From positions 5,613 to 69,167 of the forward strand of contig CAZOKP010000005.1 in NCBI GenBank assembly GCA_964580435.1: a DNA stretch of 63,555 nucleotides, read 5' to 3'. This DNA is from an uncultured Eubacteriales bacterium. Lineage in GTDB: Bacteria; Acidobacteriota; Aminicenantia; Aminicenantales; UBA8522. The number at the start of each line of letters is the position of its first letter. The first letter of the stretch is position 1. A model generated the notes under the pieces. That model had not been told where the DNA came from, ran no database searches, and saw only the letters and a list, made by a program, of their open reading frames with translations. The position numbers were made by a program, and so were the translations under genes. Shown here piece after piece: positions 59,309-63,555 of the stretch.

Positions 59309-59331
59309 GAGCCCGGGTCGGGCAAATTTTC

Positions 59332-59360
59332 TTGACAGGAAATCAAATTTATGTTTTACT
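59332..59360 (+). promoter_or_regulatory. Sigma-70-type promoter TTGACA-N17-TTTACT
   Basis: Consensus -35, extended TG, upstream of hdrC. Confidence 0.55.
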
Positions 59361-59435
59361 GGAAAGTCATTTTTGGCATGACAATTTCTCAAAGAGATAG
59401 ATATCTCGCCATCCAATCTTGAAAGAGCAAAACAC

Positions 59436-59843
59436 ATGAGAATCAACATATCCAAGAAAAAAATCAGGGACCCTTTTGTCCAAAAGATCGAGGAACTGAG
59501 CGGCCAGAAGCTTCTCGCCTGTTATCAGTGCGGCAAATGCTCAGCTGGGTGCCCCGCGGTGTCCCAGATGGATATCTTGCCCAATCAAATCATCCGCTTC
59601 GCCCAGCTCGGGCTGAAAGAGGAGCTCCTCGAATCCAAATCCATCTGGGTCTGCGCCTCCTGCTACACCTGCAACGTCCGCTGTCCCAAGGGGATAAAAA
59701 TAGCTGAAGTGATGGAAGCCCTCAGGCAGGTCCTGCTGCGCAAAAGATGCGACCATGTCGAAATCCCCAAACTCACCAACGAAGAAAAGGCCAGCGTGCC
59801 AGCCATCGCCTTAATCAGCAATTTCCGGAAATTCACGTCTTGA
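59436..59843 (+). CDS. hdrC: Heterodisulfide reductase subunit C-like 2x[4Fe-4S] protein
   Basis: CYQCGKCSAGCP and CASCYTCNVRCP. Confidence 0.88.
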   Translation: MRINISKKKIRDPFVQKIEELSGQKLLACYQCGKCSAGCPAVSQMDILPNQIIRFAQLGLKEELLESKSIWVCASCYTCNVRCPKGIKIAEVMEALRQVLLRKRCDHVEIPKLTNEEKASVPAIALISNFRKFTS

Positions 59844-59866
59844 CAGAGAGATGTTAAGGAATCACG

Positions 59867-60745
59867 ATGAAAATAAGCTACTACCCGGGTTGCACCTTAA
59901 AAAGCAATGCCAAGAACTTTGAAGACTCCGCGCTATGCTCCTTAAAAGAGCTTGGGGTTGACGTCCAGGAGCTCAAGCGCTGGAACTGCTGCGGGACCGT
60001 CTATTCCCTGGCGACTGACGATCTGATGCATCATCTTGCCTCTATCCGCAACCTGATCCGCGTCAAAGAAGCCCAGACAGATTCGGTGATGACTCTTTGT
60101 GCCATGTGCTACAACACCCTGAAGAGAGTCAACGAGAGGATCAAAGCCGACCCGGAAAGCCTGGAAAAAATCCACAAATTCATGGATGAGGAAAAAGTCT
60201 CCTACGAGGGCGATGTTAAAGTCCGTCATCTGCTGGAACTTTTGCGGGACGATATCAAATTCGAGAACATCACCAGGAAGGTCCGAAAGCCCCTGAAAAG
60301 CCTTAAGGTTGCCAGCTATTATGGCTGCCTTCTGGTCCGTCCCAAAGAGATCGGGTTTGATGACCTGGAAAATCCCCGGATTCTCGACGACCTGATGACC
60401 GCCCTGGGCGCTAAGTCCGTGGATTTCCCGTATAAGACAGAATGCTGCGGTGCTTATCAGACGGTCGATAAGCCCGAAATCATTGCCGAGAGGACATACG
60501 GCATCCTGACCTCCGCCCGGAACCAGGGGGCCGAGGTCGTCGCCGTAAGCTGCCCTCTCTGCGCGTTCAACCTGGATCATCGGCAAAAAGAGACGACTCA
60601 GAAATACTCGGAATTCAAGAAAATGCCGATTCTCTACTTCACCCAAATCATGGCCATCGCTCTGGGGTGTGAGGAAAAAGACCTCCGTTTTGACCTTCAT
60701 TATGTTAACCCCAAGCCGCTGCTCGAACAGAAAGGCTTGATCTGA
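59867..60745 (+). CDS. hdrB: Heterodisulfide reductase subunit B-like (two CCG domains)
   Basis: YYPGC...CCG...CAMC and YYGC...CCG...CPLC. Confidence 0.9.
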   Translation: MKISYYPGCTLKSNAKNFEDSALCSLKELGVDVQELKRWNCCGTVYSLATDDLMHHLASIRNLIRVKEAQTDSVMTLCAMCYNTLKRVNERIKADPESLEKIHKFMDEEKVSYEGDVKVRHLLELLRDDIKFENITRKVRKPLKSLKVASYYGCLLVRPKEIGFDDLENPRILDDLMTALGAKSVDFPYKTECCGAYQTVDKPEIIAERTYGILTSARNQGAEVVAVSCPLCAFNLDHRQKETTQKYSEFKKMPILYFTQIMAIALGCEEKDLRFDLHYVNPKPLLEQKGLI

Positions 60746-60752
60746 GGAAAAA

Positions 60753-61028
60753 ATGATCCACTTTGGCGATCTCAAGGCTAAAAAAGGCACCATTCATATC
60801 AACAAGGAACGATGCAAAGGTTGCGGGTTTTGTGTGGAATACTGTCCCAGGGACGTCCTCGAACTCTCCGAAGAATTCAACAAGAAGGGCTACCATCCGC
60901 CCCGTATCGTAAAAGAAGAAGAATGCTGTTATTGCCAACTCTGTGAAGCGATCTGCCCGGAGTTCGCCCTGTTTGTCACACTCAAGAAAGAGGAGGAAGA
61001 AGGTGAAAAAAGTGAAAGCCGACCCTAA
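60753..61028 (+). CDS. korD: 2-oxoacid:ferredoxin oxidoreductase delta subunit (2x[4Fe-4S] ferredoxin)
   Basis: CKGCGFCVEYCP, KGYHPP, CCYCQLCEAICP. Confidence 0.85.
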   Translation: MIHFGDLKAKKGTIHINKERCKGCGFCVEYCPRDVLELSEEFNKKGYHPPRIVKEEECCYCQLCEAICPEFALFVTLKKEEEEGEKSESRP

Positions 61029-62169
61029 GGGAGTCTTAACCGGATCCCATTATCTGGACGGCGACTTTGCCATAGCCGAGGGCGCGCTGGCAGCCGGCTG
61101 CCGTTTTTTTGCGGGTTACCCGATTACGCCTTCCACGGAAACGGCGGAAAGGTTTGCCGAGCGGATTCCCTTTGTTGGCGGAGTTTTTATACAGATGGAG
61201 GATGAGATTGCCTCTATCACGGCGTTGATCGGAGCCTCCTGGGCTGGCCAGAAAGCCATGACGGTGACTTCCGGACCAGGATTTTCCTTGATGATGGAGA
61301 ATATCGGGCTGGCCTGCATGATGGAAGCTCCGCTTGTCATCGCTAACGTCCAGAGGGGCGGGCCCTCCACGGGGCTTCCCACCCTGGTCGGCCAAGGTGA
61401 CATGATGCAGGTCAAGTGGGGCTCCCACGGCGATTTCAGGATCATCGCCCTCTCCCCCGATTCTCCCCAAGAGTGTTTTGACCTCACCATCAAGGCCTTC
61501 AACCTCGCGGAATTGTACCGGGTTCCTGTTTTTGTCATGACGGACGAGTGCGTCGGCCACATGCATGAAAAAGTCGTGATCCCCGCTGCTGACCAGATCG
61601 AGGTCGTCGAACGGAAATGGTACAAGGGGCCGAAAGACAAGTACCTCCCCTACAAGCCGGACAAAGACAAGGTCCCCTTCATGGTCAAAGCGGGTGACGG
61701 CTACCGCTTCCACACGACCGGACTCACCCATGATGAAAGGGGCTACCCTGCGATTAACGCCGAATGCCAGGATGTCTGCGTCCGCCACCTGGTGGATAAG
61801 ATCGATAATAACGCTGATAAAATCATCGAATACCAAGAAGACCAGACAGACAATGCCGATGTCGTGGTCATATCCTACGGCATCACCTCAAGGGTCGCGA
61901 CCAAGGCGATTCAAGAGGCCAGAAAGTCCGGTATTAAAGTGGGAACCATGCGGTTGATCACAGTCTGGCCTTTCCCGGAGAAACGGATCAAGGAGCTGGC
62001 CAAAAAAGTCAAGGCGTTCGTCATCCCGGAGCTAAACCTGGGTCAGGTCCGCATGGAGGTGGAACGCTGCGCCTTTGGCCAGGCCCCGGCCATCGGAGTA
62101 GGCCATTGCGGCGGCTGGGTCCATGACCCCGATGACATTCTCAAAGCCATCAAGGAGGCAGCCCGATGA
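61003..62169 (+). CDS. korA: 2-oxoacid:ferredoxin oxidoreductase alpha subunit
   Basis: AGYPITPSTE, QMEDEIA, TSGPG, QRGGPSTGLPT; GTG start at 61003. Confidence 0.93.
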   Translation: MKKVKADPKGVLTGSHYLDGDFAIAEGALAAGCRFFAGYPITPSTETAERFAERIPFVGGVFIQMEDEIASITALIGASWAGQKAMTVTSGPGFSLMMENIGLACMMEAPLVIANVQRGGPSTGLPTLVGQGDMMQVKWGSHGDFRIIALSPDSPQECFDLTIKAFNLAELYRVPVFVMTDECVGHMHEKVVIPAADQIEVVERKWYKGPKDKYLPYKPDKDKVPFMVKAGDGYRFHTTGLTHDERGYPAINAECQDVCVRHLVDKIDNNADKIIEYQEDQTDNADVVVISYGITSRVATKAIQEARKSGIKVGTMRLITVWPFPEKRIKELAKKVKAFVIPELNLGQVRMEVERCAFGQAPAIGVGHCGGWVHDPDDILKAIKEAAR

Positions 62170-63035
62170 AAGAAGAACCCCGGCTCGAAGAACGTAACCC
62201 GATAGAGAATTTCTTGAGGATGGACCGCATCCCCCACATCTGGTGTCCTGGGTGCGGCATCGGAACGGTCGTGACCTCTTTTGCCGAAGCCCTGCGCAAG
62301 AGTCAGATCGATTTGAGCAAGGTCGCCGTGGTCTCCGGCATCGGCTGCACTGGAAGGGTCGCCGGCTATGTCAAGCTCGATTCGTTCCACAGCACTCACG
62401 GCCGGGCCATCCCCTTTGCCACCGGACTGAAGTTGGCCAATCCTGAACTCAAGGTCGTCGTTTTCAGCGGCGACGGCGATATCGCAGGCATCGGCGGCAA
62501 TCATCTCATCCACGCCGCTCGGCGCAACATGGACCTCGTGGTCATCTGCGTCAACAACTTCAACTACGCGATGACGGGAGGGCAGGTTGCGCCCACAACA
62601 CCGATTCAGGCCAACCTTTCCACCGCCCCTTACGGCAATTTCGAGTATCCTTTTAACCTGCCTTATCTGGCCGAAGCCTGCGGCGCGACTTATGTGGCCC
62701 GCTGGACGGCTTTGCATCTGCGCAGAGTTACCAAGTCCATCCAGGAGGCGCTGGGCAAAAAGGGTTTCTCTTTCATCGAGGTCATCACGCCATGTGTCAC
62801 CCTTTACGCCCGCCGCAACAGGCTGGGAGACGGGCTCAACCTGATGAAATACTACTACGAGAACTGCGACATCCAACACGGCGCTGATACCCGCACGCTG
62901 GCCATCGACTTTCAAGCGAAATTCGTTGTCGGCAAATTCATCGATAAGGATAAACCGACTTTTCTCGAATGCATGAATACTCATCTGCAGAAAGCCTTGG
63001 GCGAAAAATACGTCCCCTATGGAGTCAAGCCATGA
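62166..63035 (+). CDS. korB: 2-oxoacid:ferredoxin oxidoreductase beta subunit (TPP-binding)
   Basis: WCPGCG, SGIGC, HGRAIP, GDGD, NNFNYAMTGGQ. Confidence 0.94.
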   Translation: MKEEPRLEERNPIENFLRMDRIPHIWCPGCGIGTVVTSFAEALRKSQIDLSKVAVVSGIGCTGRVAGYVKLDSFHSTHGRAIPFATGLKLANPELKVVVFSGDGDIAGIGGNHLIHAARRNMDLVVICVNNFNYAMTGGQVAPTTPIQANLSTAPYGNFEYPFNLPYLAEACGATYVARWTALHLRRVTKSIQEALGKKGFSFIEVITPCVTLYARRNRLGDGLNLMKYYYENCDIQHGADTRTLAIDFQAKFVVGKFIDKDKPTFLECMNTHLQKALGEKYVPYGVKP

Positions 63036-63555
63036 ACGAGATCCGTTTTTCAGGCTATGGCGGGCAGGGCATTATCCGCTGCGGTCTCATCGCCGGAAAG
63101 GCCATCTCCCTGTTTGACAACAAGTACGCAACTATGACTCAGAGCTTCGGACCGGAGGCCCGGGGAAGCGCCTGCAGCTCTCAGGTTGTCGTTTCCGAGG
63201 ACCGCGTGCTTTACCCCTACATCACCCGGCCGGAGATTCTCGTGACCATGTCTCAAGATGCCTACGAAAAGTATGAACCTGATCTCCGGGAAGGCGGCAT
63301 CCTGATCTATGACACGGACCTGGTGAGATTAAAGCCGGCCCGGCCGAAAATCAAGATCTACGGCATCTCCTCAACCCGCTTTGCCGAGGAAATGGGCAAT
63401 CGCATTTTTGCCAACCTAGTTATGCTCGGGTTCTTCACGGCTATCACCAAGGTCGTTACTCCCGAGGCCATGAAAAAGGCCCTTCCTGGACTGGTCCCCA
63501 AGAGATTCTTGGAGCTTAATATCCGGGCTTTCGAAAAAGGCTACAGCTACGGGCT
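63032..63555 (+). CDS. korC: 2-oxoacid:ferredoxin oxidoreductase gamma subunit, 3'-partial (missing from ORF track)
   Basis: My translation from ATG 63032: MNEIRFSGYGGQGIIRCG...QSFGPEARGSACSSQVV; runs off the window. Confidence 0.92.
   Translation, partial: MNEIRFSGYGGQGIIRCGLIAGKAISLFDNKYATMTQSFGPEARGSACSSQVVVSEDRVLYPYITRPEILVTMSQDAYEKYEPDLREGGILIYDTDLVRLKPARPKIKIYGISSTRFAEEMGNRIFANLVMLGFFTAITKVVTPEAMKKALPGLVPKRFLELNIRAFEKGYSYG

Follow-up and report, generated by a model that had tools for sequence, protein, structure and literature searches.

The hdrCB-korDABC genes of an uncultured Aminicenantes bacterium are the 5' half of a 13-gene operon with hdrA, flx and tfr-like genes

Introduction

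The 63,555-nucleotide stretch of DNA analysed here (the window), from an uncultured bacterium of the Aminicenantes (phylum Acidobacteriota), ends in genes for relatives of the heterodisulfide reductase subunits HdrC and HdrB, directly followed by the genes of a four-subunit 2-oxoacid:ferredoxin oxidoreductase (OFOR), called Kor below. The locus raises the question of which enzymes this HdrCB pair exchanges electrons with. An earlier interpretation, made from the letters of the window (the sequence-only reading), took hdrCB-korDABC for a unit without HdrA and allowed that hdrA and mvhD may lie past the window end. It also proposed to inspect the downstream contig, an hdrA after korC in the same operon being named as the result that would speak against it. 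This is what was found. Both genes are present in the same operon, hdrA directly after korC with a 4-bp overlap and mvhD 2 bp further on. The six genes are the 5' half of one 13-gene operon, hdrCB-korDABC-hdrA-mvhD-flxCBA-tfrB'A, and the HdrA-less unit does not exist.

The genes in the window

The window covers the first six of the 13 operon genes and stops inside korC at a scaffold gap. All six genes, from 59436 to 63555, are co-directional:

59436..59843, + strand: hdrC-like gene, 135 amino acids (aa), two-[4Fe-4S] subunit (PF13183, Fer4_8; TIGR03290, 85 bits, below the equivalog cut-off of 160)
59867..60745, + strand: hdrB-like gene, 292 aa, two CCG domains (PF02754 twice; TIGR03288, 186 bits, below the equivalog cut-off of 345)
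60753..61028, + strand: korD, 91-aa 2x[4Fe-4S] delta-subunit ferredoxin (best match NF042987, OGOR_delta, 72 bits, below cut-off)
61003..62169, + strand: korA, alpha subunit, overlapping the end of korD (NF006412, 572 bits, above the cut-off of 411)
62166..63035, + strand: korB, thiamine pyrophosphate- and Fe-S-binding beta subunit, with an ATGA overlap with korA
63032..63555, + strand: korC, gamma subunit, with an ATGA overlap with korB, interrupted by the scaffold gap at the window end

The junctions measure 23 bp between hdrC and hdrB and 7 bp between hdrB and korD, korD and korA overlap by about 20 bp, and the korA/korB and korB/korC junctions are the ATGA overlaps listed above. The likely start of korA is the GTG at 61003, which has GGAGG ahead of it, with 61012 as an alternative start. 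These values agree with the gaps of about 25 bp or less, or overlaps, described by the sequence-only reading from hdrC through the gamma-subunit gene, and the arrangement hdrC-hdrB-korDABC that it reported is real and correct. Upstream of hdrC there is no hdrA; the neighbour on that side is an alpha/beta-hydrolase gene. Long antisense open reading frames across the region have no family matches and were rejected as shadow frames.

The operon beyond the window end

The window corresponds to positions 5613-69167 of contig C5. Its end borders a scaffold gap of 100 N (locus L003, 5169-5268) that is flanked by an exact 55-bp duplicate of window positions 63501-63555. A second join of this kind lies further downstream, where contig C5 ends in 55 bp that recur exactly in the reverse complement of the terminal part of contig C4. 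The two joins are contig overlaps that the assembler left unresolved at k=55, and the gene calls across them are therefore broken in the public record. When the gap is collapsed, korC extends into a lysine-rich tail of about 35 aa, and its TGA stop codon overlaps the ATG of hdrA in the sequence ATGA.

The hdrA product has 648 aa and scores 834 bits with NF040770, below the cut-off of 1100 because the MvhD part is a separate gene here. It matches 5ODC_A, the HdrA chain of the solved Methanothermococcus enzyme, over its full length (residues 3-641, 705 bits), and it has the features of the bifurcating type, namely a flavin adenine dinucleotide (FAD) domain, an N-terminal cysteine cluster, and an inserted and a C-terminal ferredoxin domain. 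It is the only HdrA found in the genome, and the HdrB of the operon is the only stand-alone HdrB-type protein.

The complete order is hdrC-hdrB-korD-korA-korB-korC-hdrA-mvhD(flxD)-flxC-flxB-flxA-tfrB'-tfrA. The mvhD (flxD) product matches PF02662 (FlpD/MvhD). It is followed by two Fer4-type Fe-S subunits, FlxC (343 aa) and FlxB (about 350 aa, HydB/AsrA-like), and by FlxA, a HydG/AsrB-like NAD-binding [2Fe-2S] flavoprotein with NAD_binding_1 and DHODB_Fe-S_bind domains. The next gene, tfrB', is split by the end of contig C5 and completed on C4, where the gene for the 555-aa flavoprotein TfrA follows (C4:80273-81937). The gaps after hdrA are, in order, 2, -1, 4, -11 and 32 bp. No junction in the operon exceeds 32 bp, and genes overlap at korD/korA, korA/korB, korB/korC, korC/hdrA, mvhD/flxC and flxB/flxA. 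The operon, which contains no membrane-anchor gene, is flanked by the alpha/beta-hydrolase gene on its 5' side and by a convergent BNR/sortilin-type gene on its 3' side, after tfrA.

Conservation and variants

The conservation of the operon was judged on the 80 closest genome loci, one per species, with the order followed as far as each contig reaches. The gene order is identical in 80/80 Aminicenantes species loci, and hdrA stands after korC in every one of sufficient length. A conserved-neighbourhood search had been suggested by the sequence-only reading, and its view that Kor and Hdr are functionally tied is borne out by this synteny and by the recurrence of the gene set in other orders elsewhere. 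Nearly all of the 80 loci are labelled Candidatus Aminicenantes, and many other records carry default names such as 'uncultured Eubacteriales'. Loci L018, L019 and L053 and many of the 'uncultured Eubacteriales' records hold the operon at 72-91% identity under the titles Desulfaltia, Spirochaetota, Bacteroidetes or Eubacteriales; such titles are probably wrong or default taxonomic labels.

Relatives of HdrB are numerous. A homologue search, dominated by Aminicenantes sequences, gave about 7,500 at E <= 1e-40, and 16 of 21 close relatives have an HdrB ortholog. A protein atlas look-up returned generic HdrB clusters only. Neighbourhoods were also sampled in 300 Acidobacteriota genomes. Those of HdrB relatives with 46-52% identity are hdrCB-tfrB'A clusters (three genomes) and an hdrCB-hdrA-tfrB'A cluster (one genome), and HdrB paralogs of at most 41% identity sit in ordinary hdrCBA-mvhD clusters. 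The closest HdrB relatives outside the Aminicenantes order directly adjoin a pair of SdhB-like and TfrA-like genes, the same kind of pair in which the operon itself ends, in keeping with the link between CCG proteins and thiol:fumarate reductases that the sequence-only reading had pointed out.

Distant representatives also served as seeds for a metagenome scan. It gave 35 loci, each 8 kb or longer, with an HdrB that shares less than 65% identity with the one studied here. Several gene orders occur among them, with hdrA present in 28, tfr genes in 20 and kor genes in 11 of the 35. The shuffled orders include korDABC-hdrCB-hdrA-mvhD-tfrBA and tfrBA-korDABC-hdrA...hdrCB, and one divergent lineage has exactly the Aminicenantes order at 50-71% identity. 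In a quick, provisional maximum-likelihood tree of HdrB (IQ-TREE), there are 39 rows in which kor comes directly after hdrB, and all but one of them (38) group in a single clade (SH-aLRT support 90), which is nested among tfr-linked and hdrA-linked forms. The linkage has outlasted repeated shuffling, which makes these gene neighbourhoods good evidence for a functional unit composed of this HdrCB clade, HdrA, Kor and the soluble fumarate reductase. The neighbourhoods also suggest that HdrCB is first of all a partner of the fumarate reductase.

Some single loci deserve mention. Metagenome loci L168, L162 and L183 have Kor, Hdr and Tfr genes in differing orders, and in L133 (1084-9250) a korD-like ferredoxin gene stands alone between hdrB and hdrA. 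In L106 (455-9334, genome G160), the Kor-containing operon is directly preceded, on the same strand, by a second, divergent hdrC-hdrB...hdrA-mvhD-flxC-like set.

Cofactor motifs and subunit identities

HdrB matches the HdrB of 8RVU/5ODC over its full length (153 bits) and keeps 10/10 of the cysteines by which methanogen HdrB binds its two non-cubane [4Fe-4S] clusters. The methanogen substrate, the coenzyme M-coenzyme B heterodisulfide (CoM-S-S-CoB), is unlikely for this protein, the host being a bacterium.

The sequence of TfrB' was taken from a closed relative, where it has 247 aa. It is SdhB/TfrB-N-like, and its motifs are one of the [2Fe-2S] type and two of the form CxxCxxCxxxCP. A CCG domain was not found in it, such domains being supplied by the separate HdrB. 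For the TfrA-like flavoprotein of the same relative, the best family is the thiol:fumarate reductase subunit TfrA (351 bits, below cut-off). The fumarate-site His/Arg/His/Arg residues are kept in the motifs HPT, R-G-x-G-G, H-Y and N-R-L. The histidine that binds FAD covalently is replaced by asparagine in 8/8 TfrA-like sequences and is kept in the canonical SdhA of the genome; the separately encoded L-aspartate oxidase, NadB, also has asparagine at this position. In SdhA/FrdA proteins, loss of the covalent FAD bond abolishes succinate oxidation, not fumarate reduction. The asparagine, as a signature of non-covalent FAD, thus points to fumarate reduction as the direction of the TfrA-like protein. 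Residues 1-90 of this protein form a conserved N-terminal extension (YPEYM...FHPDY...IGPNKG) without a family match.

All four OFOR subunits (delta, alpha, beta and gamma) are encoded within the operon, and the alpha subunit passes the cut-off of a generic 2-oxoacid:acceptor oxidoreductase family. The best named matches are to 2-oxoglutarate-specific models, each below its cut-off (alpha 403 of 579 bits, beta 232 of 364, delta 72 of 125). The closest solved chains to KorA are 1YD7, a Pyrococcus 2-ketoacid enzyme, and the 2-oxoglutarate synthase 8YS5. KorB has its best solved match in 8YS5_C, the beta subunit of a 2-oxoglutarate:ferredoxin oxidoreductase (203 bits), and 8YS5 is the nearest solved whole enzyme to Kor. 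The genome encodes two more four-subunit OFORs, both of the Por/Vor type. Judged by these matches, Kor is likely to be specific for 2-oxoglutarate.

Genome context

Two further loci of the genome may bear on the function of the operon. The first is a three-gene operon (C93:181-3512, L096). Its products are a SucC-like protein (522 aa, with a weak citrate-binding match), a SucD-like protein (306 aa) and a citryl-CoA lyase (259 aa), the last of which passes the curated cut-off of NF004869 (278 bits, cut-off 212). The set has the pattern of ATP-dependent citrate cleavage by citryl-CoA synthetase and citryl-CoA lyase (CCS/CCL), for which the three genes are candidates. The operon occurs in 17/21 relatives, among which it tracks the Hdr operon imperfectly. 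Canonical ATP-citrate lyase was considered and rejected, the marginal PF16114 matches of about 30 bits being the SucC-like subunit of this same operon. No literature linking Aminicenantes to the reductive tricarboxylic acid (TCA) cycle was found.

The second locus encodes a DsrC-family protein with both C-terminal cysteines (C-x10-C-V; C101:7337-7639, L095 4323-4643). A DsrC-type protein with both cysteines is present in 20/21 relatives and is a candidate thiol/disulfide partner for HdrB. Its gene adjoins a class-V aminotransferase/cysteine-desulfurase-like gene.

Proposed mechanism

The gene content, the operon structure with its coupling signals, the conservation and the cofactor motifs are observed directly. 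From them we infer the direction of electron flow, the substrate of Kor, the physical association of the enzymes and the involvement, or not, of a thiol/disulfide carrier. The explanation that we favour, by a modest lean, is a flavin-based bifurcation at HdrA that is driven by NAD(P)H and serves fumarate and 2-oxoglutarate synthase. NAD(P)H would be the donor, with FlxABC and MvhD passing its electrons on to the bifurcating FAD of HdrA. The high-potential electron would travel by way of HdrC/HdrB, then the SdhB-like TfrB', and arrive at the non-covalent FAD of TfrA, where fumarate would be reduced to succinate. The low-potential electron would leave through the ferredoxin domains of HdrA for KorD and Kor, either directly or via free ferredoxin. 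Kor would act as a 2-oxoglutarate synthase, by which succinyl-CoA is reductively carboxylated to 2-oxoglutarate. A bifurcation divides electrons 1:1, in agreement with the 1:1 need of a reductive TCA branch, in which one fumarate is reduced per carboxylation. The genome context was also counted in favour of this explanation, namely the Por/Vor type of the other four-subunit OFORs and the citryl-CoA-lyase operon elsewhere in the genome. The sequence-only reading had 2-oxoacid oxidation feed electrons into HdrBC; under the bifurcation model, the direction is probably the reverse.

Several observations weigh against the bifurcation model. The overlap of korC and hdrA is not conserved, and a closed relative has a 79-bp gap there. 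The flxCBA genes are missing from six loci (L038, L062, L065, L066, L071 and L072), four of which also lack mvhD, and no FlxC ortholog was found elsewhere in 5/5 of the flxCBA-less genomes searched; the input of NAD(P)H via Flx is thus not universal. The operon is missing from some relatives, the HdrB ortholog being absent in 5/21, one of them a single-contig genome. The scores of the Kor subunits under the 2-oxoglutarate-specific cut-offs weaken the assignment of its substrate, and the two-cysteine DsrC-type protein could be the real substrate of HdrB. Biochemical data were found for no member of this cluster type.

A bolder form of the model, in which Flx, HdrABC, Kor and the fumarate reductase form one megacomplex that splits NAD(P)H electrons between fumarate and the CO2-fixing 2-oxoglutarate synthase with neither a thiol carrier nor free ferredoxin, is doubtful in our estimate. 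If it were true, the megacomplex would be a bacterial counterpart of the methanogen Hdr-Fwd assemblies and, together with the CCS/CCL-type genes, would imply a bifurcation-driven reductive TCA cycle, or a branch of it, in bacteria supposed to be fermentative.

Should the favoured model hold, the low-potential electrons of 2-oxoglutarate synthase would be paid for by fumarate reduction with NAD(P)H, which is exergonic, and a reductive TCA branch would need no separate ferredoxin-reducing system. The operon is very common, as judged by the HdrB relatives, by the at least 80 Aminicenantes species and by its occurrence in many other uncultured lineages, and it could matter for the carbon flow in anoxic sediments.

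Alternative explanations

The alternative that survives best, although we regard it as unlikely, involves a thiol/disulfide carrier. Flx-HdrABC would bifurcate electrons from NAD(P)H to ferredoxin and to a DsrC-type protein disulfide, HdrCB and TfrB'A would form a split thiol:fumarate reductase that re-oxidises the carrier, and Kor would run on free ferredoxin; neither direct wiring nor a megacomplex is required. The intact CCG cysteines of HdrB and the near-universal two-cysteine DsrC-family protein of the relatives are consistent with this arrangement, and the hdrA-less four-gene hdrCB-tfrBA clusters look like TfrAB split into subunits. In sulfate reducers, DsrC is the proposed partner of FlxABCD-HdrABC according to Ramos 2015 as cited in PMC6315080. 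However, the DsrC-type gene is unlinked to the operon, TfrB' has no CCG domain of its own, and one and the same HdrCB would need to both reduce and oxidise the carrier.

A somewhat less likely alternative runs the system in the oxidative direction. Here, Kor would oxidise 2-oxoglutarate or another 2-oxoacid from amino-acid fermentation, and the electrons would either flow via HdrA to fumarate as a sink or confurcate with electrons from succinate onto NAD(P)+. OFORs are reversible, and the variants without Flx or MvhD, which keep only Kor, HdrABC and Tfr, would fit a chain from Kor to fumarate. The description of Aminicenantes as fermentative heterotrophs (PMC5459899; Kadnikov 2019, as cited in PMC7509429) also agrees with it. 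Yet a plain downhill chain needs no full bifurcating-type HdrA, and the asparagine in TfrA speaks against the oxidation of succinate. Moreover, confurcation onto NAD+ from 2-oxoglutarate and succinate is endergonic, as estimated from standard potentials.

The direct route of the sequence-only reading, from the delta ferredoxin of Kor to HdrBC without HdrA and on to an unidentified disulfide, could draw on the 7 bp between hdrB and korD and on the lone korD-like gene of L133, but it is excluded in practical terms by the hdrA in the same operon, which overlaps korC and follows it in every Aminicenantes locus of sufficient length, and by relatives without HdrA, which pair hdrCB with tfrBA and not with kor.

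Upstream boundary and promoter

The upstream end of the operon is marked by three features:

59311..59323, + strand: terminator-like GC hairpin with T-run, directly 3' of the alpha/beta-hydrolase gene; upstream operon boundary
59332..59360, + strand: promoter with -35 TTGACA (59332-59337), 17-nt spacer and -10 TTTACT (59355-59360), TGT just 5' of the -10 element
59394..59407, strand not assigned: palindrome GAGATA-GA-TATCTC, between the promoter and the hdrC start codon

The promoter lies in the 127-bp spacer 5' of hdrC. A scan for sigma-70 consensus promoters upstream of hdrC made no call there. In an alignment of 40 Aminicenantes species, the promoter is conserved at the level of at least 80% as CTTGACA...AATTnTGn TnTACT, so that the operon's own promoter, already noticed from the letters of the window, is backed by conservation and not by the consensus scan. 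The palindrome keeps its position across species, although its sequence differs and is often CCTATA-N5-6-TATAGG, as seen by eye in the alignment, without statistics. It could be an operator or a hairpin in the 5' untranslated region.

Comparison with known systems

Two of the most closely related known systems come from methanogens. The TfrAB thiol:fumarate reductase of Methanothermobacter (NF004900 / NF004898) is the best family of the flavoprotein, and the Fe-S subunit resembles the N-terminal part of TfrB; both systems are soluble and lack a membrane anchor. In Methanothermobacter, however, the CCG domains are fused to the C-terminus of TfrB, whereas here they form a separate HdrB with its own HdrC, and the scores are all below the family cut-offs. 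The methanogen Hdr-Mvh/Vhu-Fwd assemblies (5ODC, 7BKB, 8RVU; PMC13518236) share HdrA, HdrB and HdrC that are homologous over their full length. The Hdr-Fwd assemblies also set the precedent of low-potential electrons from HdrA being wired directly into a CO2-fixing enzyme. Their electron donor is H2 or formate rather than NAD(P)H, their acceptor is CoM-S-S-CoB rather than fumarate, and their CO2-fixing partner is formylmethanofuran dehydrogenase rather than an OFOR.

FlxABCD-HdrABC, the NADH dehydrogenase/heterodisulfide reductase of Desulfovibrio vulgaris (Ramos 2015, as cited in PMC6315080), has in common with the operon HdrABC, an MvhD-like FlxD, two Fe-S subunits and an NAD(P)H/FAD/[2Fe-2S] subunit. 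The Aminicenantes genes belong to this kind by their family matches and by their layout next to the hdr genes. For it, too, a flavin-based bifurcation to ferredoxin and a high-potential acceptor is presumed. The Aminicenantes operon differs from the system as cited there in that Kor separates hdrB from hdrA, a fumarate reductase is added at the end, no alcohol dehydrogenase gene is present and the order is reversed (flxD-C-B-A).

A 'succinate operon' with fumarate hydratase, Flx-Hdr and soluble fumarate reductase has been described for Pseudoclostridium thermosuccinogenes (PMC7282089; Koendjbiharie and van Kranenburg 2019, preprint cited there). According to these accounts, Flx-Hdr is joined, as here, to a membrane-free two-subunit fumarate reductase, with fumarate proposed as the high-potential acceptor. 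As described there, the succinate operon is without Kor, and the Aminicenantes operon in turn has no fumarase gene.

The nearest likeness is to the clusters of tubeworm symbionts (Ca. Endoriftia persephone and the Escarpia laminata symbiont) and of Thioflavicoccus mobilis, in which korABCD and tfrAB are interspersed with flxABCD-hdrABC (Rubin-Blum 2019, PMC6315080 Text S1 note 3). A direct bifurcation from NADH to 2-oxoglutarate:ferredoxin oxidoreductase and thiol:fumarate reductase was proposed in that work (Rubin-Blum 2019, PMC6315080). KorABCD was later placed between HdrA and HdrBC, and co-expression was reported in Endoriftia (Mitchell 2024, PMC11636981). The cluster has also been noted in the Bipolaricaulia UBA7950 (preprint, bioRxiv 10.1101/2023.11.26.568696), and a 2026 survey repeats the bifurcation model (PMC13147460). 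No literature describing the cluster in Aminicenantes was found.

The gammaproteobacterial and the Aminicenantes clusters share the gene set. In each of them, Kor stands between hdrA and hdrBC, and the same co-directional block includes flx genes and the two genes of a soluble fumarate reductase. The likeness is one of gene set and layout. The hosts differ, the tubeworm-symbiont cluster, which belongs to the reductive TCA cycle, coming from another phylum than the Aminicenantes, which are regarded as fermentative heterotrophs. The gammaproteobacterial cluster lies inside a reductive TCA island (aclAB, acn, idh, mdh, pntAB), whereas the Aminicenantes operon stands alone and the citrate cleavage genes, if they are such, are of the CCS/CCL type, not aclAB, and lie on another contig. 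Three additions to the published picture are the series of architectures from hdrCB-tfrBA to forms with added hdrA, then kor, then flx, which would tie this HdrCB clade first to the soluble fumarate reductase, the non-covalent-FAD signature of the flavoprotein, and the candidate citryl-CoA synthetase/lyase genes in the host group. The mechanism proposed here is the same as that proposed for the tubeworm-symbiont cluster, and the Aminicenantes operon is a further member of this published kind of operon.

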